A DNA stretch of 64,000 nt from a virus: the IMG/VR virus record IMGVR_UViG_3300010399_000002, positions 1 through 64,000 of that record. The stretch is one strand, 5' to 3'. Position numbers and translations under genes: made by a program. Below the pieces are notes generated by a model, which was not told the DNA's origin, did not search any database, and saw nothing but the letters and a program-made list of their open reading frames with translations. The first letter of the stretch is position 1. Every line of letters starts with the position of its first letter. Positions 13,355-27,017 of this stretch are shown piece by piece.

Positions 13355-15464
13355 CTACCACTTGTTGGCCTCCTTTTTTACTGCACTGCACAGATAGTAC
13401 AAACAACCGATAGCTGCCGAATACAGTTCGGGTGATTGGTCTCGGAACTCTTCCAACAGCTTCTTTTGAGTAACGCTGAGTGACTCCTGATCCTGTTCAT
13501 AGGCCTCGAGTATCCTGGCCACCTCCGGCGGAAACGAAATGGTATCTGAAACTGGCTGCGCCATTGAATAGTTGGAGCCTCCAATGTTGACATACTCGGG
13601 ACCTTCTTCGGCCTTCATGGCCTTTAGACGGCGGGCTGCAACGATCTTCCACTTCGGCACAACGTGTCGGCCGGCGTTTCTTTCGGCTCGGTCTTTGTAC
13701 ATCACGCACCACCTTTCTTCTTCAGATAGTAAATCGCATCCATAACCATCGAAGCGGATAATGTTATGCCTGCATACCTCTGAGCATGAGTCCTTAGAGA
13801 CCAAACCGATAATTGAGTCCTAAGAATCTTGATCAGAGTCTTCCGATCACAACCGGGCTTACGACCTCGCAAACTTTTTTGGAGTCGTGCGATGGCCGTC
13901 CTGCGCAGTTCCACTTCCGATTGTTTGGACCAGACAGGCAGTTTGCCGTGTGGGTGCTTTTTACCTTCCGGCCAATCACGATCCGGGATGGGTCTCATAC
14001 GGCCTCCTTCTTCTGTTCGGTGTACAACACGGCTCGACGCCCACCTACGGCTGCGGTTAGATCTCGAGCAGCACGCAACGCAAGTGAGAACTTCCCAATG
14101 AAAAGAAACCTGCCCAGACCGTTGTCGACCTGGAAATGCCAAACACCGGATTGACCTACTTGTCCGTGCACTCGTACATACTCATCGTACGCAACGGTGA
14201 CCTCGTCCGGCCTCGTATTGATAGGAGCTGGTGTTATCGCTGCAACGTCCCAATGCTCGAGATTGTCGTGAATGACCCACGTGGTCTTTTCTTTACTGGT
14301 AAGAGTCTTAGCGGCAGAGACAGCGGCCTCGAACATGTGGTAGCGATACACGTGCTCGTATCGGTCCTTCAAACGAACGACAGAGTAGCGAACAGTGGCG
14401 CTCATGACGTCAACTCCGCGCTACCGCTCACCTTCGAAACCCGAACATGGTTGAAAAAAGAAACTGTAGCCGCCAACAGAAACGCGCGACCAACAATGTT
14501 CTCAACAGCGGCCTGATCTAACAACGGTTGGTAGACGTTGCCGTTAGCTGAAACTGTGATGATGGTCTCTTCGCCGGAAGCTGTTGGTACCGTACGCAGC
14601 ATGAAGTACCATTTACCTGCGGCATAGTGGTTGCCATTGTACCAAGTCTTGGGCTTGACGTGAGCTACGCCTTCTTGCCAAATGGCGTGTAGCACTTCGT
14701 CAAACGCCTCGTTCAAGATATCGCAAACATTCTGCTCAGTCTGTAGCATTTTTTGCCTCCTTGGGCCTCTGGCCCGACTCAAAAAGTGTTCTGGTTGCTA
14801 GAACCAGTTAGCAAACCGCACCAAGTACGGTTGTAAAATGTTGTCAACTAGCATCGCCAGCATACGTGACATACCGGCGACAGTGAAACCAACCACAAGC
14901 GCTGTTGCAATCTCTTTGACTTTCACGGTATTGCCTCCCTTTCGTACATTCGCCCGGCCTCGAACGCGACCAGAATGCACAGATGCAAAAACGCATCCTC
15001 ATCGTGTTGACCGGTCTGGACTACAATTTCCTGAATGGGTTGACCTTCTAAACCGGAATCACCTGTCCAATCGTGACCCGCTAACTCCGGTATAGTAGCT
15101 GTAAACCTTTGTATGGCTTCGTGCCTGATAGCACACTCTTCCAAAGAATTGAGATCTCTCATCTGAATAGCACCTCCGGGACTCCGTTCTTTCTGCACTG
15201 CTCATAGTGATGAACTGCATAATTGGCACTGTACACGGAACAGGCCTCGATGATGGTCTGATGATCCACGGCCTTGGCCTTTAGATAGTAATAGCCTTCC
15301 CACGACGGATGGAACACAGCGTAGACTACAACGTTAACGTCAGCTCGCCGCAGCAACAGATTGGCATGATCGACATTCACCATCTTTATCTGGCGACCCC
15401 AACCTGGAATATCGACGATGGTAAAGCCTTTCGGCGTTGTACGCAAAGTCTTAATGTGTATCAC
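13355..15464 (-). other. Small hypothetical early-type genes (13355-~13705, 13702-~13998, 13995-14405, 14402-~14749, 14923-15162, 15159-15464)
   Basis: Tiled minus-strand ORFs with GGAGG SDs. Confidence 0.65.
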
Positions 15465-15491
15465 GAACAGCCTCCTGTGGTGGAGTTATCA

Positions 15492-15546
15492 GTTACTCCA
15501 TCCCGCCGGGACACTGGTTAGAGTGTCCCGACAGAAGGATTGTAAC
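15492..15546 (-). ncRNA. Intergenic hairpin/anti-SD element, copy 1
   Basis: GUUAC-AA-UCC-15bp stem-loop-U-GGA-GUAAC. Confidence 0.85.
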
Positions 15547-15553
15547 CTTCGAG

Positions 15554-16267
15554 TTACTTCGACAAGGGGTACGTGATCTTGTACTTGTCCCCCGTCACCT
15601 TGCACGTCCACTTCTTGCCCAGATATGCCTCGAGCTGGATGCCGTTCACCAACCGAGAGGGCTTCACCTCGCACTCCTTGGCGAGAGCGTTGATCTCCTT
15701 CTCGGTCGTGCCCTTCATGGCCAGCATGAACGCCCGGCCCATCGCGCTGCCGGCTTTGAACGGCAGATCCAAACCGCTGCCCTCGGGCTTGGCCTTCTTC
15801 TTGGGCTTGTCATCCGCCTTCTCGGACTTCTTTGCGGTCTTTTTGGTCTTGTCGGACTTCTTGGCCTTGGCCTCTTTGGCGGGCTTCTTGGACTTCACGG
15901 GCTTCTTCTTGTCTTCCACGTCTTCCTCCTCGTCGTCGGTCTCGGGCTCTTCTTCGTCTTCGGGGCTGTTGTCCTCGTCGATCTCGCTGATCTCTTCGGA
16001 CTCTTCGTCCTCTTCGGTCTCTTCCACGTCGTCTTCTTCGGGCTCTTCCGCCTCGGACTTGCTGACCTTCTTCTTTGCTGCTTTTTTGTCTGCCACTTTG
16101 TCTTTCTCCTTTTTCGGTCTGGGACCGGTTGGTTCCGCGTCGTCCAGGCAATCACTGGAACAGTACTCGCCCTTCTTACCACGGTATGTGAACGTTTTGG
16201 TGAACGGCTTGTGACAATGGTCGCAAGCGGTCTTTTTGGTTGGTTGACTCTTGTTCTCGTCTGACAC
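15554..16267 (-). CDS. Zn-finger (CxxC...YCSxxC) protein with acidic/lysine-rich linker and C-terminal small domain
   Basis: 237 aa, AAGGAGG SD before GTG, strongly biased codon usage. Confidence 0.85.
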   Translation of the reverse strand: MSDENKSQPTKKTACDHCHKPFTKTFTYRGKKGEYCSSDCLDDAEPTGPRPKKEKDKVADKKAAKKKVSKSEAEEPEEDDVEETEEDEESEEISEIDEDNSPEDEEEPETDDEEEDVEDKKKPVKSKKPAKEAKAKKSDKTKKTAKKSEKADDKPKKKAKPEGSGLDLPFKAGSAMGRAFMLAMKGTTEKEINALAKECEVKPSRLVNGIQLEAYLGKKWTCKVTGDKYKITYPLSK

Positions 16268-16295
16268 GTCTGCCTCCTTGAAAATCGGATGGCCC

Positions 16296-16352
16296 GGTTA
16301 CTCCATCCCACCAGCCCACTCGAATGAGTGAGCTGATAGAAGGATTGTAACC
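16296..16352 (-). ncRNA. Intergenic hairpin/anti-SD element, copy 2
   Basis: GGUUAC-AA-UCC-16bp stem-AUUC loop-U-GGA-GUAACC. Confidence 0.85.
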
Positions 16353-16354
16353 TT

Positions 16355-16696
16355 CTAACGAAAACCCCACCGAGCCATCACGTCTGGCTCCGATGCGTTC
16401 TCCATCACATCACTCGTGCAAACTGGACAACCATCATGGAGATCCTTCCGACGAAAGTCGTTAGTGAACTCGCCTGAGCAGCCCGACTCTTGCATGATTG
16501 GATCATCCCACGCGGTAGACTCCATCCGACACTGCTGCCATTCGTTTGTGCGCTTGTTGATAAACCAGTGGTCTTCCTTGCGGTGCTGCAAGGCTCGAGC
16601 ACGTTGATAAACAGAATCGAGTGTAGACGGCATCAGCTTTGACAGTAGCTTAAAAAGCCATCGCCACCTTCTATCGAACTGACCTACTGTCTGCAT
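16355..16696 (-). CDS. Hypothetical protein (MQTVGQF...)
   Basis: Start fixed by AAGGAGGCAGTAACC-ATG. Confidence 0.75.
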   Translation of the reverse strand: MQTVGQFDRRWRWLFKLLSKLMPSTLDSVYQRARALQHRKEDHWFINKRTNEWQQCRMESTAWDDPIMQESGCSGEFTNDFRRKDLHDGCPVCTSDVMENASEPDVMARWGFR

Positions 16697-16725
16697 GGTT
16701 ACTGCCTCCTTTTTGGTGGAACTCG

Positions 16726-16784
16726 AATCGTTCCATCCGGCCAACCCACTGCTGCGACAGTGAGCTGACTGAAGGACTACGATT
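16726..16784 (-). ncRNA. Intergenic hairpin/anti-SD element, copy 3
   Basis: AAUCGU-AG-UCC...U-GGA-ACGAUU; outer stem covaries with the other copies. Confidence 0.85.
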
Positions 16785-17554
16785 GGCCTGGAGACTTGGT
16801 AAGTGCCTCGTTGTCCGTCAAGCACTCGTGAACGATGAACCTCGCTGCTGCGGCTGTCTCGTCCAACGTCCCCAAATGCACTGCGCCTTCGATGGGACGC
16901 CGATCAATCTTGGTTGTCAACTGATACAGCACTCGACCGTTGACACCTTCCTCGCGCTGCTTCTCGATGGTAAACGCAATGTGGACCTTCATCTCGTATC
17001 CTCCCTAACTGGAGCTGTGGCGATCAGCCCGAACAGATGAATCGGACTGCGATCACTGTACACCATAAACACGAACAGTTGGGCCTTGCTCCAGCCTTTT
17101 TGCCTCCACGGATTGGACACCTCGCCGTGAGGTATTACAAGCACGGTGTCATTATTCTTACCGATATACCAACCCGGACCTTTGAACTTAAACGTGGGCA
17201 TCTGGAACTCCATCTTCTTTACGGTCCCGGCCATTGTCCAATCCGGATAGATGTCAAACGACAACCTGGACTGTTTCTTCGACTGTTTCTTCTTCACGGC
17301 TTCACCTTTCCGGCCTTGCGCTGCGCTTTCACAAACGCAACCAACGCCTTGTAAACCTCGGGCGAGCACTCCACTGACCAATTACGGTCAACGCGAGTAA
17401 CACAGAACTCACCAACCTCGGTGTCTACAAAGTAGTCTACGGCACCATCCTCGTCTCGAAGGTCGAGCACTTCGCCCACCTTCATAGAACCCAGAAACGA
17501 GGGCTTGAAAAACCTTTCGGGCTTTCCTTTTCGAGCCTTACTGATCTTCGCCAT
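16777..17554 (-). other. Three hypothetical genes (16777-16992, 16989-~17297, 17294-17554)
   Basis: Coupled ORFs; the first is preceded by AAGGAGGCAGTAACC. Confidence 0.7.
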
Positions 17555-17577
17555 GGTTACTGCCTCCTTTGTCTTCC

Positions 17578-17650
17578 GACCTGTCTCATCAGTGTTGGTA
17601 GGTCATTTCCAACAGAGCCTCGTAGAAGTTTTCCCACGAGGCTTTCGACA
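17578..17650 (-). ncRNA. Type II hammerhead ribozyme 1
   Basis: UGUC-GAAA-[GCCUCGUGGGAA AAC UUCUACGAGGC]-UC^-[UGUUGG loop CCAACA]-CUGAUGA-GACA; loop GACCU pairs with 3' AGGUC; predicted cut between 17615 and 17614. Confidence 0.92.
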
Positions 17651-17748
17651 AAAATACTCGAGAGTGAAACGCATGGAGATATAGGAGGCATAGCGTTACT
17701 CCACCAGTTCACTCCCGAGGTAGCCACGATCCCAAGTGACTACAAAAC

Positions 17749-18888
17749 TCAAGGTGTCTTGGTGAAGACTGCTCTCACCTCATCTTTGTTGAACTCCACA
17801 CGCCAGAAATTGTGTCTGAGGTCTTTGGAATATGCAATCAATCGCTGAGCCGGGTCGGCACACGGCAAACCGTTGGTAACATCGGCCTGCTTATGCCACT
17901 GCCCGTCTTGCAAGCGCGCCCAAATCATCGCCATGGCTGAACCTGGCGCATACATACCGCCGATCTTCTCACCTTTGGTTCGCTTGAGATTGCTCTTCGG
18001 TCCAGATGCTACACCCGGAACCTTCGGAGCTTTCGGTTTCTTGGGCTGTTTACCGTTGCCGACCACCACACCTGGCCCACCGGCTGTCCTGGCTGCAATG
18101 TTGCGAATGAGCAACCTGGAAGGTACGGTGCCGAGGTATGCCAACCAAGCATCGGCTACAGTCTGTACTGATGGAAGGACTTGGTCCAGCTTCACGACAT
18201 GCTGGCCATCGACCACCTGCACAGCGGAGGCTGTAAGCACGGTGCGAAGCTGACTCAGTAATAGTGGTAGCACCCCTTCGCGCTTGACCTGATGGTAGAG
18301 CTGTTGAGCGTATTCACGGCTGAAGGTGACTGTGCCGTTGCCGTCGAATTGTCTGGCCTTCTCGGCTTCGGCTACGGCGAATTTGATCTTCCCGCCGAAC
18401 GCCTTGTTAAGTGGAGTAACCACGGTATCGAACTTCCCGGTCAATCTGGCTTGCGATGCTTCGAGCTTTCCGCGCACCGCTTCCAGCTTCTTGTAGTAGG
18501 TCTCCATCTCGGGCATTTTGGGTATGACCTTCGACTCGCGCACGATCTTCTCGTACAAGCGAACCGCGGTACGCAGAGAAAGCTCCTGCTCTTGCTCAGT
18601 GGCACCTGGATTGATACCCAAGTTACGCGCACCGTTGGCTCGATTGTAGGACTTTTGCATCTCCGCTGACTGGGCTAGGTTAGTGTTCTGACTCAACACG
18701 TACGGCACGGCAACATCATACCAATTGATAGCTTCACTCAACGCAGTAAGCTGCATGGGAATAGAAGCTGTAATCAACTGCCTGTACGCCTTGAGTAGCA
18801 AACTGAGCTTGGGCTTGGGATACTGCGGAGCTGCTTTGACTTTCTTTGGCGCTCTCGGCGCCTTTGGTTGTCTTCTTTTGAACGGCAC
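17749..18888 (-). CDS. Hypothetical basic protein (379 aa) with C-terminal small domain shared with two other ORFs
   Basis: Long ORF, AAGGAGG SD, upstream GGTACAAT -10-like box. Confidence 0.85.
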   Translation of the reverse strand: MPFKRRQPKAPRAPKKVKAAPQYPKPKLSLLLKAYRQLITASIPMQLTALSEAINWYDVAVPYVLSQNTNLAQSAEMQKSYNRANGARNLGINPGATEQEQELSLRTAVRLYEKIVRESKVIPKMPEMETYYKKLEAVRGKLEASQARLTGKFDTVVTPLNKAFGGKIKFAVAEAEKARQFDGNGTVTFSREYAQQLYHQVKREGVLPLLLSQLRTVLTASAVQVVDGQHVVKLDQVLPSVQTVADAWLAYLGTVPSRLLIRNIAARTAGGPGVVVGNGKQPKKPKAPKVPGVASGPKSNLKRTKGEKIGGMYAPGSAMAMIWARLQDGQWHKQADVTNGLPCADPAQRLIAYSKDLRHNFWRVEFNKDEVRAVFTKTP

Positions 18889-19086
18889 TCTTGCCTCCTT
18901 GACGGAAAGTGTAATTGTACCTTACTTAGGGTCTCTTCTTGAACTTCAACTCGGCGTCGGCTCTGGTAGGAGCCTGGATGACTGTTGAGCCTTTGAACTT
19001 TTTGGACTGGTGATGGATCTCTTTCTTGTCGGTGTGATAAGCGAAGGCTGAACCTCCGGCTGTTACCAACCACAGAGTAGATTTAC

Positions 19087-19428
19087 TCATAGTGAATCCC
19101 TCATGGCCCTTACAAGGCACGCTGGCTTGTTGCAAGCGCCCCGACCGAAATCGTGTGTACCTACGTACGTGTACTTTTTCTTGCAGTACCTGCACACTGC
19201 GGTATGCTCCACTTGTACCGACTTGTACTTCACAAGTCTGCCGGTCTTCTTCAGAAGAGTAAGGGAGCCTCCATCTAACTGCAGGATTATCCCTTTGATT
19301 GGATCGACTGACTTCGTTCTCCGACCCGGTTCGTTACCGCGCTTGGCGTCCTCTTGCAATGTAACAATCTCGCGCTCCCAATCTCGAACCGACATGGTAC
19401 GAACGTATGTAACGAAACGCTGACTCAC
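19087..19428 (-). CDS. Hypothetical Zn-binding protein (VSQRFVTY..., CRYC...C..PAC)
   Basis: AAGGAGGT SD before GTG. Confidence 0.7.
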   Translation of the reverse strand: MSQRFVTYVRTMSVRDWEREIVTLQEDAKRGNEPGRRTKSVDPIKGIILQLDGGSLTLLKKTGRLVKYKSVQVEHTAVCRYCKKKYTYVGTHDFGRGACNKPACLVRAMRDSL

Positions 19429-19446
19429 AGTTACCTCCTTTTGAAT

Positions 19447-19502
19447 GGTTACTCCATCCGGCCAACCCACTCGGAGAATGGGTTGACTGAAGGATTGTAA
19501 CC
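19447..19502 (-). ncRNA. Intergenic hairpin/anti-SD element, copy 4
   Basis: GGUUAC-AA-UCC-UUC-A/C mismatch-12bp stem...GGA-U-GGA-GUAACC. Confidence 0.85.
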
Positions 19503-19805
19503 TTCTAGATTACAGGAACGGCGCACTTGTGCTCGTCGGCTCGAATATCGATCATCTGACCTGAACCGAGGACTGCACTATCCCTCGCAACTGGTAGACC
19601 TGATATGCGAACGACTGTTGTGCCGTCGTCCTTGTTGTTGACGTATAGGACCCCGCGACGCTGATCCCATTCGACTTCGCAATTTTCGATACGTTGCATT
19701 TTTTCTCCTTTTACTTTTGGGTCAGTTTCCAAAGCGTTAGGAACGCCCACAGAGACAACGCGAATTTCAAAGCGGCTTCGCCTGGTTCCATTTTGTGTCC
19801 TTTCG

Positions 19806-20894
19806 TCACGCCTTGGTGGGAGGAGCTGGAAGACAGAGGCGACTCGCAGCAGCAAGGAACTTCTGCTCGAAGTCTTTGGCCCTCATGACTCGCATGAACT
19901 CCCCACCGGTGGCCTTGCACGTCTCTTCGATAGCCTTGTGCATCGGATCGGCTCCGAACAACGACGTGTCTGCGCTGCTCACCAGAAGGATCACATCCAA
20001 CACGATGTTCATCTCCTTCATGGTAGGAATCAGCGTCGGCAACGATATGGCATCGTGTGACATGCCGTCGGTCACGAGAACCACATGATGCGCTCGCAAC
20101 GGCGACGGCGCCTTCTGACAGAGCTCGATGCTGGCCTTCACGGCTGGGAAAATATCGGTCCCGCCTTGAGGCGACATCAAGTTCAAAGCGTTGAGTAGAG
20201 TATCCCGCGTGTGGGCACCTTTGACATGCACGTTATGATCGAACTCGATCAACCTGATGTCGGGGTTCTCGTACTTGTTGTAGCGTTCTTCGATAGCCTT
20301 CTTGATATGCTTCTTCAAGGCCTGCATTTTGGTCTCCAGCCCGCGGAACTTGCTATAGTCCTCTTTGACTCCGAACATTTGGGTCAGGCCGAGCATCACA
20401 ACCGCGTCTTGCAGTAAGTCCTGGTTGTGAGTGAATCCCGCCAGCGCTGCAATTGCTACCTGCGGGTTCATGGACGACTGCGCTGCGCCGAACAATTGGG
20501 CCAGCAGCGCCTCCGGGTCGTTGACGTCGGGAACCTCTTCAGCCTCTTCGACCTCCGCGACCTCGTTGCTCAATGCCGTTTGGGATTCGACGATGGCTGC
20601 TGCGATCTTGGCCATGTTCTCTTCCGTCCACTTGTACAGCGTACGCGGATTGTCGGGTAGAAGATGACCGTCCATCGAACCAGAAATGTCGACGGTGAAG
20701 ATCAACTTCAAGAACTGCTGCGCCAGATCACTCAGCGACTTCGGGCCCTTGACTGGCTCGCGTTTCGCCGTCTGGGAAAGGACGAGATCTCCGCCGACCT
20801 CGGTCATCGACTGGATGTTATCATTCTTGGACTCGTCGTCCTTCTTCTTCTCGGGCTCGAGATTGTCCAAATCCAACAAAAAATTGTCACTCAT
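19806..20894 (-). CDS. von Willebrand factor A (vWA) domain protein
   Basis: MIDAS DISGSM, GGTDI, VVLVTDG, TGGEF; start moved to 20894 (SD AAGGAGGCAGTAACC). Confidence 0.85.
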   Translation of the reverse strand: MSDNFLLDLDNLEPEKKKDDESKNDNIQSMTEVGGDLVLSQTAKREPVKGPKSLSDLAQQFLKLIFTVDISGSMDGHLLPDNPRTLYKWTEENMAKIAAAIVESQTALSNEVAEVEEAEEVPDVNDPEALLAQLFGAAQSSMNPQVAIAALAGFTHNQDLLQDAVVMLGLTQMFGVKEDYSKFRGLETKMQALKKHIKKAIEERYNKYENPDIRLIEFDHNVHVKGAHTRDTLLNALNLMSPQGGTDIFPAVKASIELCQKAPSPLRAHHVVLVTDGMSHDAISLPTLIPTMKEMNIVLDVILLVSSADTSLFGADPMHKAIEETCKATGGEFMRVMRAKDFEQKFLAAASRLCLPAPPTKA

Positions 20895-20917
20895 GGTTAC
20901 TGCCTCCTTTAGTTTTT

Positions 20918-20983
20918 TGACCTGTCTCTTCAGGACGGGTAGGTCATTGCCCGCCGACGGGAGCGACTGGCTCCCGTTTCGAC
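20918..20983 (-). ncRNA. Type II hammerhead ribozyme 2
   Basis: GUC-GAAA-[CGGGAGC CAGUC GCUCCCG]-UC^-[GGCGGG loop CCCGUC]-CUGAAGA-GAC; UGACCU/AGGUCA pseudoknot; predicted cut between 20956 and 20955. Confidence 0.92.
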
Positions 20984-22310
20984 TCACTTGCAGTCTAGGG
21001 TGATGCAATTGCCATTCTGAATCCTGGCCAAAAACTTGCTCTTTCCGGACTCCGGCAACGTTGCTTGCCAAACCGACCTGGCTTCTTTCCAGCAAGTAAA
21101 AGCCTTGCGAGTGATTGGCTCACTCTCATATCTGGTAATACCGGGCGAAAGGTTAACTGGAGCTTTCTTAATCTCTGTGTCGATGACCCAGAACTTTTTC
21201 ATGCGTTTCTCCTTTCGTACTCGTACTGGAACAAGCGCTGCTGCAACCTGACTTCGATAGGGACCTTCTGTTGATTGTACCTTTGGAGTATTGGATCGAT
21301 GTTGATAGCCTTCTCGAACGCTGCCTCGGATGAATCGGCTAGCACTCGAACAACTACCGTTGGATTGTCCATCGGAGCTTCGACTAGATACCAGGCTGTC
21401 ATTTTACGACTCCTTTGAAGTGTCGAACCTGTAACGATAGATGGTAGCCTCGTACCGCCCGGTCTTGACCCAACCGTAACCGACTTCACGATACGACTTG
21501 CGAATGTCGATCTTGCGAACGTTGACCTTGTCGGCCAACCTCGCCAGTTGGTTGTGCTTCGATACGGCCAGACCGTGACGGGGCTTGATGGACCGACTGC
21601 CGTTATCGGGATTGCGGTCAATGAAGTATCGCTCTCTCCAAAATTGGAGCTGCGACTTCGCAGCCTGCAATCGTTCCTCGGCAGATGCAGACTTCTTAAC
21701 CAGTTGGGGCTGAACCTTCCGGCCATCCGGCCTGCGGTTCTCTTTGATTCGAGCCTTCCACCTCTTGATCTCGGCTTCGAGACGCGGAATTTTTCTGGCC
21801 TCTCGTCTGGCCTTGGTGATTAGATCTTTGAGGTATTGAATGTTTGACTCACATCTGTCTCTGTCGTCTTTGTAGGGCATCAGAAAACCTCCAACTCTAA
21901 GCCCAGTGACTTCGCAATCTTGCGGGCTTGAGAAACCGGAAACCACGCAATGCCGGCCTTGTCTTCTGCGTACGCTTTGTCTTTGGACTCGAATGGATCG
22001 GGATTGCCGTCTGTGAAGTACAACGGGCCGGCAGAATTGGTCTCCAACTTCAGGAACAGCTTCTTGGCCCAGCGAAGCTTCGTATTGAGCTTCATGGTTT
22101 AGTTCACCTCCGTCTCGGACATGCGCTGCGGAATCGCCTTCGTAGCAGCCTGGTAGTTAACCCAAGCTGCGTCCTTGGCTTCGCGGCTGCCGGCCTTCTT
22201 CCAGACCTTCCATGCATCGATCATCGCGACGATAGCATCGGCCCGGCGATAAGCTAACTGCTCACGTTCACTCGTCATAGTTACTGCCTCCTTTTGTGGT
22301 GGAGTTATCA

Positions 22311-22364
22311 GTTACTCCATCCGGTCGGATCACTCAGAGAATGATCCGGCTGAAGGATTGTAAC
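22311..22364 (-). ncRNA. Intergenic hairpin/anti-SD element, copy 5
   Basis: Same consensus with a covarying upper stem. Confidence 0.85.
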
Positions 22365-23429
22365 CCTTACCGTGTCTTGATCTTCAGACCCGACTCGAGA
22401 GCCTCGCGCAGTGCCTTCGCAATTCGTCTGGCACCTCGTGTATCCCACATCCTGGTCTTTTTGTTGTACTGATATCCGTCGCAGTAACCGCCGAACACGT
22501 ATATGCCGGCGGCCTTACCTGATGGAACGATCTTGATCTCGAACTTGTAATGCTCGGTTGGTTTTCTCATGATCTCCTTTTCAAACCTTGTTGGTTGAGA
22601 TTGAACCTTTCACGACACTCCAACCGAAAGATGACCAACGACCTTCGGTTGGTCTCCACGACCTTTCGTTATGGGCGTAGGCTAATTCGATTGTAGGAGT
22701 CTCTTGCGCGTCTTCTTTGGACTCGGACGGGTAGCTCTTGACTACGATCTTGCTGACTGCTTCTTGCGTTGCAGGGTAGCATGAATCGTACCTGAGCATG
22801 TCCAAAGGGAAAGTGAATTTCCCGACCACTTTGAATCTCGTAATGTACATCATATGGCTTCGGCTTTCTCCTTTGCGGTATTGAGTAGCGATTGCAGCCT
22901 CGTGATCTCGTTCAGCAAGTCTTCTTTTCCCCACCTATAGTTTGGATTGTACTTGCCGGCCTCGAGAGCAACGTCGCGAAGAGAATTGGCTGCTGCACGC
23001 GTGCGCTGCTGCTTCTCAAGATAGGCTGTACGTTCTTCAAACGTTGCTTCATCCAATTGGTAATTGTGATAGCCAGAAGCACCTTGCAGCTTGCCGTCGG
23101 GACGAAACCGCATCGGCGATCCATCTCCGATCTTAACGTCGACGCAGCCACTCGGTGTTCTCTTGACTACCTCGCCTAGAGTGTAGTGAATATCGTGTCC
23201 GGTAAACCGAGCCAGATAAACTTGAGTCACTGAGCACCTCCCGATATAGCAACGAACACAGCGACGAATTGGTCTGGCTTCGGCATCTCCCACCGCAGAA
23301 TCTGCATGACCTTCCACGGCTTGCGCGCTGCGTCAAACCACGTGTCACCCTGCTTGGGGGCTCGCTTCTCGCCGGCTTTAAAAACTTGGGCTTTCATGGT
23401 TACTGCCTCCTTTTAATTGGTGGATTCTT

Positions 23430-23483
23430 GTCGTTCCATCCGGTCAGCCCACTCGCAGAATGGGCTGGCTGAAGGACTACGAC
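23430..23483 (-). ncRNA. Intergenic hairpin/anti-SD element, copy 6
   Basis: GUCGU-AG-UCC...U-GGA-ACGAC. Confidence 0.85.
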
Positions 23484-23934
23484 GCTTGCGGACTGTGCGC
23501 TGCGTGGCTTCGTATCCACGGCTGCGGCTTTTCCACTTTGGCTAGTGGAATAGTGAGGTCTCGACTTCCGATCTCGATCTTCAGCGACAGGAACGTCAAG
23601 TAACTTCGCTGATCTAGACAGTGGATCGTAGTCTCCGTCTTCAACAACTTGATGGCTTCGCGTCTCGTCATTGTCTCTCCTCAATTGGGATAAGTAACTT
23701 TCTTGTGAGGGAACTGGCCTGCCCAACTCTTAACTTCGTCTCGTAACTGAAGATACGACTCGTACTGCTGTCCACCTTTGAGGATCTCGCTATTTGTTCC
23801 GAACTGGACGATGCGCTCGAAGGCTTCGAACTTTTTCCACATGCGAGCTACCAACCTGTCGAACTGGATATCGTTCATGTCTGCTCCTTTTAGTCGTCGA
23901 TGTCTTTGCCGAAGTTGCTGGGATTGGAGTTATT

Positions 23935-23999
23935 AGGTTACTCCATCCGGCCAAACCACTCGCATTGCTGCGAATGATCTGACCAAAGGATTGTAACCT
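23935..23999 (-). ncRNA. Intergenic hairpin/anti-SD element, copy 7
   Basis: AGGUUAC-AA-UCC-19bp stem capped by a GCAA tetraloop. Confidence 0.85.
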
Positions 24000-24012
24000 G
24001 TTTCCCGTGCAG

Positions 24013-24710
24013 AGCATCTACTGAGCTGGCACGTAAGTGTTACTAAGTATGCAAGCTAGCTGTGGATGTCTTCGCGCTGGCTACCATTTGGAAACCTTTG
24101 GTCGCTTTCTCGTGGCCTTCTGTCGTAGAGTCAGCTTGGAGGACATCACGTTGCGTCACTCACTAGTGTACTAGTATAGAGTAGACCAGTCCGTTCAGTG
24201 CGCAGGGAACATAAGCAGAACCTGCAGGCATTTCCGACTCGGCTTGGACCAGATGAATCTTCGGTCTCGAACCATCGAGCGCTCGTCTTCGTTCAATCAC
24301 CATGGGTTGTGGTATTGAACCAGCGTCTGCTATTCGGTTTTCAAATGCGGCTGTTAACCGCGCTGTCCCTGTAGTACTAGTGAGATCCTGCGAGAGCTCA
24401 TACGGCGCTTCGCAAGTGGGGCATTCCCAGCGGTACCGACTGCAAACCTTGGAAGGCTCGCTTCATTAGGCACTTCAGTGCTGGTGGTTGAACCCTTGAC
24501 TCTCAAGAACCCTTGGGGAGCTCAGCGTTGAATAGCGCTGCGAGATCCGGTAAAGCTTCTCGCCTCCGTAGAAGGAGCCAAACCAAACGAAAACGTAGTC
24601 GGTGGTTGCGAAGGTATAACCGGCGTTGGTCCCTCGGGGCGCCTGGCACTTTGGCCCCTTCGCGTATTCGGTTGGTTGGTTTGCTATTCGCTTCATCACA
24701 GTAGAACACT
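24013..24710 (-). ncRNA. Putative ~700-nt highly structured non-coding RNA
   Basis: No credible CDS; 5' and 3' ends pair; many nested long-range helices; TATACT box 7 nt upstream. Confidence 0.7.
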
Positions 24711-24717
24711 ATAGGAT

Positions 24718-24723
24718 AGTATA
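24718..24723 (-). promoter_or_regulatory. -10 element (TATACT) of the putative early promoter
   Basis: Lies 7 nt upstream of the first base of the terminal stem; no canonical -35 at 17 bp. Confidence 0.45.
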
Positions 24724-25045
24724 GGATAGGGATAGAAAGGGGGCTTTGGGGAACTTTATTTTCACTTTGTTTTCAATCACTTACAAGAAACACCCCTTGC
24801 ACGGTGCCCTCGTAAACCCTTTAGAACGTTGGGTTTACACGGGGTCTCAGAAGCCAAAAATGGGGATTTTTGGAGCTTCGGTGGGTCCTACGCGGCCGGT
24901 GGTAGTGGTAGGAAACGGCAAACGGACGCGGTACAAGAGCTGCTACGGGGTAGTTTTCGCGGCGGTGGGGTAAGGGAAAGGACCCTGAACAAATATCCAA
25001 CTTGGGGCTTGACACTCGGCCCCTTTTCCCCTTTCACTTTGGGAG

Positions 25046-25711
25046 TCAACGCATCTTGAGAAACTTATGCCACTGGCAGGTTAACATCCAATCCGGTCGC
25101 TGACGCAGGATCTCGATGACTCGACTGTGGTCTCCATCTGAATCCCCAACGCTGTTTATAGCTGAAAGATAGACGGGTATACCTTCGGGCCCAGCGTTGA
25201 CGATTCGGTCTGCATCCTCGAGACGGAAGTTCTTTCCCACCAGGAACTTCCATTCGTTAACCCAGACGGCGTTCTCGTACAGGAACCCTTGCTTGGGCGA
25301 GCACGTGATCCAACAGCGTTCTCCGACAGCGTCTGGAATCTTGAGAGTGCCGCTTGTCTCGATATGGATACCCGCCTCCGGCACAGCATCGATCAGCGGC
25401 TGTAGATCGTACAGGAACGGCTCGCCACCTGTGATAGATACCCAGGCAAGTCTGAAGTACTGGAAAATCTCTTCGGGCGTCATCTTCTTTGACTGGTGGT
25501 AGTTTGTGTCACAAAGAAACGCATCGCCACAGGCTGTACGACAGATGGAGTGCTTGGGATTCACTTCTCGCAGTACTCGCAGCTCGGGATCTTCGGGCGT
25601 CTCGTATCTCCCGACGTTGCACGCAGCTAGACGGACGAAAAACATAAGAGCTCCACAGTGTGTTGCTTCACCCTGAATTGATTCAAACGTCTCTGCGATA
25701 GGATATCTCAC
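25046..25711 (-). CDS. queE: 7-carboxy-7-deazaguanine synthase (radical SAM)
   Basis: IAETFESIQGE, FVRLAAC...CDT, ITGGEP, IETSG, TCSPK, QWHKFL. Confidence 0.92.
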   Translation of the reverse strand: MRYPIAETFESIQGEATHCGALMFFVRLAACNVGRYETPEDPELRVLREVNPKHSICRTACGDAFLCDTNYHQSKKMTPEEIFQYFRLAWVSITGGEPFLYDLQPLIDAVPEAGIHIETSGTLKIPDAVGERCWITCSPKQGFLYENAVWVNEWKFLVGKNFRLEDADRIVNAGPEGIPVYLSAINSVGDSDGDHSRVIEILRQRPDWMLTCQWHKFLKMR

Positions 25712-26562
25712 AGTTGAGACCTCACTTTTCTTACAACCTTAACTGTATCCGATAACTCCGACTCCCAAATTACGATTGCCTTATAGCCGTGATCTCGAAA
25801 GTGCTTGATTCGTTCTTTCTCTTCTGCTTGTCTGGACTGTCCTGTGATCAACGGACCGTGCCAATAGTTTCCAAACAACTCGATTACAACTCGACTATGC
25901 CTCGAAACAAAATCTGGCAACTTGCCGCCTACAACAAGTCCGCCTTTGATGTTTAACTTGAACTTGCCTGGAAAGTTACCTTTTAACAAACGCCAAAGAG
26001 CCTTCTCACATCCGTTTGGACGAGACAATCTAGCTCGTGTGTTAGCAGCCTTGTTTGCTAACAGAAGTCTTGTACTAGGCTTACGAAGAGACTTTGATAG
26101 GTTCAAGCAATGTTCTAGTGTTCTTGGTGGACGTTTGTAACCTTTTAACCTTTTTGAAATAGCTGCTCGTTGCTTATCTGTAACGACTCTCTTCGGCTTG
26201 CAGGCTAAATATTTAGCCCTAAGAACTGGGTCGGCCCACCTGAGCTTGGCTGCAGCTGATATCTTTGCATTACGAATGGGAGATCTTGCAGCTGCAAGAT
26301 GACGACTTTTAAACTTTGGATCTTTTCGATACCTACTGCGAAGCCTTTTTGAAAGACGTTTGCGTACTACACGCGGCATGAAGTCGTTGCCATTCTTAAT
26401 CCTGGTAGCTTTCCTTTTTGCTGCTACCTCAACACTGCGTAATACACCTCCTTCTACCCAAAGACTTTTTACATGTCTCCTATTTGCCTCTATACGCCTT
26501 GGATCTTGAAAAGCCGCCTTAACAGCGGCGGATATCTTTGGGTACCTTACGGGCTTCTTCAT
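25708..26562 (-). CDS. Free-standing putative homing endonuclease (Vsr/DUF559-like)
   Basis: W.DP..R repeats; PNGCE...PDFV...VIELFGNYWHG...GYKAIVIWE. Confidence 0.8.
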   Translation of the reverse strand: MKKPVRYPKISAAVKAAFQDPRRIEANRRHVKSLWVEGGVLRSVEVAAKRKATRIKNGNDFMPRVVRKRLSKRLRSRYRKDPKFKSRHLAAARSPIRNAKISAAAKLRWADPVLRAKYLACKPKRVVTDKQRAAISKRLKGYKRPPRTLEHCLNLSKSLRKPSTRLLLANKAANTRARLSRPNGCEKALWRLLKGNFPGKFKLNIKGGLVVGGKLPDFVSRHSRVVIELFGNYWHGPLITGQSRQAEEKERIKHFRDHGYKAIVIWESELSDTVKVVRKVRSQL

Positions 26563-26564
26563 AA

Positions 26565-27017
26565 CTACACCTCCCAACGAGCTTCCGAAGTGCAAGTCTC
26601 TTTTAGCGACACACGAGACAGATAGTGCTTGTACTTTGCTCCGATCTCCGTGCCCAACAACGGACGCAGAATGTCCACAAAGCGCAGCACCAAATTCTCA
26701 CTTGAAGGATAAAACCCGTCACCTAGAATTTCTGGCACATAATAGATAACATCCTGACCTTCACCTTCGGCCTCAAGTGAACTCAATGGCCACGGACCAA
26801 GATGTTGATGGTCGAGATGATCTATAATAGCCTCATCTACAATTTTCTTCAGATCTCCGTAGTCCATTACAAAACCCGTCTCAGGATCTACGTCGCCTTC
26901 GACAGATACAAATAATACCCAATCGTGTCCGTGAAGCCGTGAACATTTTCCTTTGTGCTTAGGCAGCACGTGACTAGCATGAAAATTTCTCTCACAAGTT
27001 ATCTCGACTACACTCAT
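26565..27017 (-). CDS. queD: 6-carboxy-5,6,7,8-tetrahydropterin synthase
   Basis: FHASH, KCSRLHGH, VMDYGDLK, LDHQHL, PSSENL. Confidence 0.92.
   Translation of the reverse strand: MSVVEITCERNFHASHVLPKHKGKCSRLHGHDWVLFVSVEGDVDPETGFVMDYGDLKKIVDEAIIDHLDHQHLGPWPLSSLEAEGEGQDVIYYVPEILGDGFYPSSENLVLRFVDILRPLLGTEIGAKYKHYLSRVSLKETCTSEARWEV

Follow-up and report, generated by a model that had tools for sequence, protein, structure and literature searches.

Clusters of hammerhead ribozymes that cut phage polycistronic transcripts have been described; arrays of this kind cleave in vitro, and processing of phage transcripts into operon- or gene-length mRNAs has been proposed for them (Perreault et al. 2011; PMC3088659). 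In phage T7, an early precursor of roughly 7000 nt carries five RNase III signals, at which bulges or loops lead to single-strand cuts and from which hairpins left at 3′ ends stabilize the RNA (PMC3867540). Here, we describe an operon of small genes in the virus record IMGVR_UViG_3300010399_000002, whose junctions are occupied by nine RNA elements: seven copies of an irregular hairpin, which we call hairpin A (A1 to A7), and two type II hammerheads (B1 and B2). The window that we analyzed is the first 64 kb of this complete 114,732-bp record, which comes from a soil metagenome and has a 123-bp terminal repeat, and the operon runs from 24730 to 14800 on the minus strand. We tentatively propose that its transcript is processed at all nine sites, with the hammerheads cutting themselves and the A hairpins most likely serving as sites for an RNase III-type nuclease, a reading whose chance of being correct we place a little below even. 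For the hammerheads this is a reasonable view, and for the hairpins it is still tentative.

The T7 early region is a multi-kilobase polycistron behind clustered promoters, and the present unit has the same general layout. As with the T7 RNase III signals (Dunn and Studier 1983; PMC3867540), two-turn irregular hairpins lie between the genes and in the leader ahead of the first gene, bulges or loops would lie at the putative cut site, and hairpins would be left at RNA ends, an outcome that is proposed for A and results from actual cutting in T7. The two differ in that there is no sequence similarity between them, the center of A is invariant, A mimics a ribosome-binding site (RBS) and can form a second, mutually exclusive hairpin, hammerheads are intermixed with it, and cutting at A is putative. 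The hammerheads share with those of Perreault et al. (PMC3088659; RF02276) the type II architecture, a pseudoknot between loop I and the 3′ tail, a position between stop codon and RBS, and the company of small phage genes, whereas here a hammerhead occupies only two of nine junctions and the other seven hold a hairpin family without a recognizable catalytic core. An earlier note on this DNA, made from the letters alone, had not recognized the combination as described; the A hairpin family, with its RBS mimicry and second state, is indeed new within our searches of Rfam and sequence collections, but as a concept the operon is a variation on two themes that are already in print.

Two further systems invite comparison. 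The REP elements and BIMEs of enterobacteria are also repeated imperfect hairpins between cistrons, and they can stabilize the upstream mRNA; they are chromosomal, occur in both orientations, and are not known to be linked to an RBS mimic or an alternative hairpin, whereas A is confined to one strand of one operon. Engineered insulators, such as RiboJ (a hammerhead joined to a hairpin) and the Csy4 or RNase III sites placed in synthetic operons, share the order of cutting device, hairpin, and standard RBS, with expression made independent of upstream sequence, but they are man-made, whereas the phage arrangement is natural and its function putative.

Results and Discussion

Two kinds of RNA element occupy equivalent positions between gene blocks

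Hairpin A and the hammerhead occupy equivalent places, in the order stop codon, element, cassette, and start codon (Table 1). Within blocks, adjacent genes overlap or are spaced by at most 14 nt, and the gaps of 76 to 194 nt hold one RNA element apiece, such that any intergenic gap longer than 40 nt contains either an A hairpin or a hammerhead. The earlier note had listed seven hairpins, two hammerheads, five near-identical initiation cassettes, and many small genes, and our analysis bears out each of these: the hairpins lie at the junctions it named and nowhere else in the 114.7-kb genome, both hammerheads are complete (although below the Rfam gathering score), the five cassettes are exact copies at the start codons it gave, and 25 genes are called, most of them with codon scores beyond the null range. 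One gap of 37 nt (18889–18925, minus strand) is free of any element; apart from one deletion, its beginning resembles the 5′ strand of A (p ~0.06), and it may be a remnant.

Table 1. Coordinates of the operon's features in the window, in order of transcription. ORF, open reading frame.
Feature	Coordinates	Strand	Score with A model (bits)	Alternative hairpin	Downstream start	Remarks
Leader	23879–24735	−				ORF-poor, ~850 nt; two promoter-like boxes; hairpin A1 near 3′ end
Hairpin A1	23936–23998	−	71.4	23921–23948		In leader; no ORF ending just upstream
Hairpin A2	23429–23484	−	76.6	23419–23441	23397	Variant outer stem; cassette
Hairpin A3	22310–22365	−	77.6	22298–22322	22278	Cassette
Type II hammerhead B2	20916–20984	−			20894	Begins at upstream stop codon; predicted cut after C at 20956; cassette
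Hairpin A4	19447–19502	−	81.9	19443–19459	19428 (GTG)	Shortened cassette
Type II hammerhead B1	17575–17650	−			17554	Long stem III; predicted cut after C at 17615; cassette
Hairpin A5	16726–16784	−	67.6	16715–16738	16696	Variant outer stem; cassette
Hairpin A6	16296–16352	−	79.8	16287–16308	16267 (GTG)	
Hairpin A7	15491–15547	−	74	15479–15503	15464 (GTG)	
Gene region	14798–23878	−				25 small genes, 26–379 aa, in nine blocks
Terminator-like hairpin	14791–14807	−				Weak; hairpin plus T run at unit end; consensus match only

The copies of hairpin A point to a conserved RNA structure

Hairpin A is an irregular structure of roughly 57 nt with 23 base pairs. Across the copies, 96.3% of the cells are paired and 10 of the 23 pairs show compensatory change on both sides, all of this covariation being drawn from seven paralogous copies in one genome; none of 500 shuffles reached the observed pairing, and no slid register came near it. 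From its base upward, the hairpin has an outer stem of 5 to 6 bp, a 2-nt purine bulge, an invariant center made of three pairs, a U-U mismatch, two pairs, and a purine mismatch, an upper stem of 11 to 14 bp, and a free loop. The outer stem of A2 and A5 differs from that of the other copies and is fully compensated, and these two are also the only copies whose 5′ strand contains the upstream UAG stop codon. Because the model scores the sense strand at 68 to 82 bits and the antisense strand at 14 to 28 bits, and because many of the pairs are G:U, the evidence points to an RNA structure and not a DNA one. The strand-specific pairing with its many G:U pairs likewise rules out an integron attC-like or other DNA-level hairpin, and an intrinsic terminator is ruled out by the lack of a U run after the hairpin. 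K-turn and sarcin-ricin motifs were absent from A in a by-eye check.

No credible match to A was found in Rfam 15 at E values up to 10. Pattern scans of IMG/VR, JGI metagenomes, and GTDB genomes returned only chance or coding matches, and none of 24 viral loci with hammerheads gave a match to the A model. The 3′ strands of five of the seven copies (for example, 19447–19459, minus strand) read AUG-GAG-UAA, a two-codon mini-ORF.

B1 and B2 carry complete type II hammerhead cores

Both B elements follow the type II order: from 5′ to 3′, a 3-nt stem II strand, GAAA, the stem III hairpin, the U-C cut site, the stem I hairpin, CUGANGA, the second strand of stem II, and a 5-nt tail complementary to loop I. 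The core is complete in both, with CUGANGA, GAAA, the A15.1-U16.1 pair, H17 at the cut site, and the G10.1-C11.1 pair; B2 has an A at the free position 7. The sequences of stems I and III differ between B1 and B2 with their pairing kept by compensatory change, and each of these stems is capped by a loop; stem II, of 3 bp, is open in both. Loop I and the 3′ tail can form the pseudoknot through a 5-nt complement in B1, in B2, and in 21 viral relatives, some of which show covariation there.

Default and permissive Rfam scans of the whole region picked up neither B element, and the RF02276 gathering threshold of 37 bits is reached by neither B1 nor B2: presented as a short stretch, B2 scores 33.3 bits (E 1.2e-5) against this family, and B1 is not reported by Rfam cmscan even on a short stretch, probably owing to its long stem III. 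A search with the loop I and tail pattern retrieved 24 viral contigs whose matches also have the remaining hammerhead core. When 21 of these type II hammerheads were used to build a covariance model, B1 scores 66.6 bits and B2 67.8 bits (E ~1e-17), a model that is only partly independent since those hammerheads were gathered with a pattern taken from the B elements; nothing in the rest of the genome exceeds 12 bits. Judged from their sequences, B1 and B2 appear to be genuine type II hammerheads of a widespread viral subfamily, and thus of an already known kind. Self-cleavage of both is a reasonable expectation because the catalytic cores are intact and the behavior of the class is established (Perreault 2011, PMC3088659). 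Several of the other viral contigs have two to four hammerheads, every one of them set in the gap from a stop codon to the Shine-Dalgarno (SD) site that follows. Two IMG/VR contigs are examples of such arrays (L165, 7484–8596; L207, 3624–4831), with three to four type II hammerheads at a spacing of ~350 nt and a pseudoknot that covaries among the copies.

Two side observations concern the surroundings of B1. The segment between the gene for the 379-aa protein and B1 (17651–17748, minus strand) contains a stable hairpin, sequence similar to both halves of A, 5′ and 3′ (local alignment p ~0.04), and an 8-nt perfect complement of the cassette's SD sequence; an A element may have decayed here and been superseded by a hammerhead. 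A 44-codon ORF with its own SD site (17557–17691, minus strand) traverses B1 and ends at a UAA within the cassette, 2 nt ahead of the next start codon; its codon score of −0.22 argues against a real gene. Candidate decayed copies, of A and of the hammerhead alike, reached only marginal scores.

A shared ribosome-binding cassette is mimicked by hairpin A

The ribosome-binding cassette is an 18-nt sequence present in five copies without a mismatch, all on the minus strand and only within this operon in the genome, where none would be expected by chance. It stands behind three A hairpins (A2, A3, and A5) and both hammerheads, and the remaining four A junctions have related strong RBSs. Identity among the copies ends at the start codon. 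The 3′ strand of A is itself identical to this cassette at 11 of 13 positions, and therefore the 5′ strand of A is complementary to the real RBS as well as to its own partner; in A3, the minimum-energy fold has the 5′ strand bound to the real cassette.

In each copy of A, the 3′ strand can alternatively pair with the following 10 to 20 nt, excluding the main hairpin. Compared with composition-matched shuffles, this alternative hairpin has p values of 0.0005 to 0.08 per copy and a Fisher combined value of ~1e-8, in which the tests of A3 and A7 are not independent because these two share a tail. Its energy is −5 to −10.6 kcal/mol against −31 to −46 kcal/mol for the main junction folds, that is, three to six times weaker, and it would therefore be relevant only once the 5′ strand has been removed or covered.

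Whether such a change would free the RBS depends on the junction. In partition-function modeling, SD exposure at B1 rises from 0.05 to 0.48 upon cleavage, to which an 8-nt anti-SD sequence upstream of the ribozyme contributes. Masking the 5′ strand gives a modest modeled rise for A1 to A3, and A4 to A7 and B2 show little or no change. The modeling is thus inconsistent across the elements, and we do not retain a general claim that cutting exposes the RBS. For the blocks that the earlier note took to be separately activated, the model supports that idea clearly at B1 and modestly at A1 to A3, but not at A4 to A7 or B2.

The unit looks like a single transcript with a plain leader

A promoter-like box, consisting of an 8-nt TATACT-type sequence followed 7 to 8 nt on by TAGTG, occurs in the leader at 24724 and again at 24179, and its 8-mer has one further occurrence in the genome, on the opposite strand. 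Where the earlier note had a single putative promoter, the box is present but in two copies, and a tandem pair of promoters and a single promoter are equally likely. Ahead of the blocks we found neither this box nor a convincing sigma-70-like site, and terminator-like sites inside the unit are weak only, with no strong ones. Because repeated boxes, convincing sigma-70-like sites before the blocks, and strong internal terminators are all lacking, the unit looks like a single transcript; a promoter for each block, which the earlier note had named as part of the grounds for giving up its proposal, is not apparent from these searches. A search for a single-subunit RNA polymerase in the phage found none, with the search's own control also blank.

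The same note had described the leader as a large structured RNA, and this view did not hold. The fold of the whole leader has a z-score of −1.6 relative to shuffles, and of its 150-nt windows just the two that hold A1 beat shuffled sequence; no credible Rfam match to the leader was found at E values up to 10. An ornate structured RNA is ruled out by these folding statistics. There is no credible ORF in the ~850-nt leader, whose ORFs have codon scores like those of null ORFs. A weak hammerhead-like match with a broken core (24181–24239, minus strand; 10.6 bits, E 0.18) lies directly upstream of the second promoter-like box; it could be the remnant of a ribozyme or have arisen by chance.

A model in which both elements are processing sites

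Taken together with the published systems, these features suggest the following scheme. Transcription by the host RNA polymerase would begin at the promoter-like boxes near 24724 and 24179 and yield a single long RNA, which would be divided at the nine junction elements into up to ten pieces. The hammerheads would cut themselves after C17 (at 17615 and 20956), leaving an upstream piece that ends in stem III and a downstream piece that starts with stem I, ~60 nt before the start codon. Hairpin A, as about two turns of irregular double-stranded RNA, would be cut by a double-strand-specific endonuclease, for which host RNase III is the prime candidate. If the cut fell between the upper stem and the 3′ strand, the upstream RNA would end in a hairpin, and the freed 3′ strand could pair with the 10 to 20 nt that follow it, so that the downstream RNA opens with a small hairpin of its own. 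All blocks would in this way have the same front end, made up of a protective 5′ hairpin, a linker rich in A, and a strong RBS common to them all, and would be insulated from upstream sequence. The hammerheads are presumably active in vivo, and the stability or translation of the resulting mRNAs may be affected.

We prefer processing because both devices would give the same product layout and because A1 sits in the untranslated leader; with no ORF ending nearby upstream, A1 fits leader trimming and not translational coupling. RNase III is favored because the helix is of a size and an irregularity that recall the five early signals of T7. With 23 pairs and energies of −31 to −46 kcal/mol, A is a double-stranded hairpin of the ~20 bp or more that marks T7-type RNase III signals, and it has conserved irregularities (the 2-nt bulge, the U-U mismatch, and the purine-purine mismatch) that might permit a single-strand cut. 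The earlier note had the transcript cut into mRNAs by two interchangeable devices; the hammerhead cores and the equivalent placement speak for this, with cutting at the hairpins putative.

Several observations weigh against processing at A. The covariation comes from paralogs of a single genome, and the modeled exposure does not change at A4 to A7 or B2. The invariant 14-nt center of A is not needed by RNase III and suggests a sequence-specific partner or a pair formed by anti-RBS and mimic strands. The phage genome, when searched, had no recognizable RNase III, RegB, Cas6, or Csy4. Finally, the stop codon upstream of A is placed between a position inside the 5′ strand (A2 and A5) and 6 nt before it in six of the seven copies, an arrangement that fits opening of the hairpin by ribosomes equally well.

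This placement of stop codons is the starting point for an explanation in which the A hairpins are never cut and act as translational coupling switches, each block being translated only when the preceding block is. A ribosome stopping near or inside the 5′ strand would melt the main hairpin; the freed 3′ strand would form the small downstream hairpin or hold a 30S subunit through its RBS-like sequence, and the real RBS would open. Such a switch would account for the complementarity of the 5′ strand to the cassette and the 11/13 identity of the 3′ strand to it, for the A3 fold that uses the real cassette, and for the statistical support of the alternative hairpin, and masking of the 5′ strand does raise modeled exposure at A1 to A3. 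It has no place for A1, however, which lacks an upstream ORF, and it does not predict that the same niche and cassette would be used by hammerheads, which are cutting devices, or that modeled exposure would be unchanged for A4 to A7. We consider coupling unlikely.

The invariant center raises another possibility, that A is a binding site for a sequence-specific protein or a stabilizer hairpin of the REP kind. In the first variant, a phage or host protein on the center with its bulged purines would repress or time all blocks jointly; in the second, the hairpins would simply stop exonucleases that arrive from the 3′ side and determine how abundant the blocks are relative to one another. An invariant center amid freely covarying stems, marked by a U-U mismatch and a conserved purine bulge of 2 nt, and an unconserved terminal loop, would be expected of a protein site, and the intercistronic placement is that of REP elements. 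Neither variant explains the alternative 3′ hairpin or the positional equivalence with the hammerheads, and the family searches returned no candidate RNA-binding protein, so that we regard this explanation as quite unlikely.

New ribozyme classes were reportedly found by Weinberg and colleagues in 2015 through their association with hammerheads. That A is a new small self-cleaving ribozyme replacing hammerheads at seven junctions is nonetheless very improbable: it occupies the hammerhead niche ahead of the same cassette, its conserved non-Watson-Crick nucleotides are concentrated in the center, and its irregular region can be drawn as a 5 × 6 nt loop between two stems, much as in twister-sister and in the very small lantern ribozymes with two stems and one internal loop (PMC5660989, PMC11620745), but the helix is nearly continuous, with no junction, pseudoknot, or conserved loop, its loop letters differ from those of twister-sister and lantern, the sole C-A step of the irregular region is present in just four of seven copies, and no Rfam ribozyme family matches.

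Modularity of the junctions and its possible meaning

A3 and A7 have an identical 28-nt tail but different upper stems, A2 and A5 have a common variant outer stem, and the cassette is identical behind A hairpins and hammerheads. The parts of the junctions thus look modular, in a manner that, as far as sequence goes, fits duplication or gene conversion among junctions; the shuffling of host-takeover genes at these points, which the earlier note suggested, is a conjecture beyond this. A bolder reading would hold that A is functionally interchangeable with the hammerheads and that its RBS-mimicking 3′ strand makes the cut a built-in translational switch; we think this improbable.

The purpose of phage hammerheads is unsettled, and in this operon two structurally unrelated elements, the hammerhead and hairpin A, share one niche ahead of one cassette. 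If processing does occur at both, the selected function would be the shared outcome, namely a cut, a 5′ hairpin, and an insulated RBS, and the chemistry of the cut would be interchangeable. Hairpin A might also serve as a compact insulator part of natural origin; the chance of its being a new ribozyme is slim.

Gene content and genomic setting

Gene starts in the operon were picked by SD context. The codon-usage score exceeds the 95th percentile of null ORFs in 20 of the 25 genes, and the remaining five fall inside the null range; 24 score above every candidate ORF of the leader, and one (g2, 0.105) ranks among the leader ORFs. Nearly all of the operon genes are without known relatives. Family searches on the 25 proteins yielded a VWA domain in a 362-aa protein, weak zinc-finger hints, and one PHROG without assigned function, and the 379-aa protein has zero relatives in phage records or among 5.8 billion proteins. 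The sole PHROG match, to phrog_11674 (E 3e-14), belongs to a 90-aa protein (22581–22853, minus strand), whose homologues, roughly 37% identical, are in phiCbK-like Caulobacter phages and Acidovorax phage ACP17. In a 237-aa protein (15554–16267, minus strand), a Cys motif like that of zinc fingers stands at the N terminus; low-complexity sequence comes after it, long and acidic at first and then rich in lysine, and in the read layout unrelated contigs accumulate on this low-complexity part.

A search of phage records, IMG/VR, JGI metagenomes, and GTDB genomes found no related genome for comparison, and megablast of the operon region against phage records gave zero matches. A second soil sample, from a separate study, holds fragments identical to the phage with zero variants and hence without comparative signal; no RNA run was listed among the datasets that contain the phage. 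QueE-like and QueD-like genes (25046–27017, minus strand) lie immediately upstream of the operon; two distant relatives of this QueE-like gene stand in another gene order, with zero copies of A. Almost all genes of the window are on the minus strand, and they include a terminase, a DNA polymerase, a helicase, an SbcCD-like nuclease, and genes of the deazaguanine pathway. The closest cultured relatives of the terminase are in proteobacterial phages, at ~40% identity, and a proteobacterial host is plausible for the phage.

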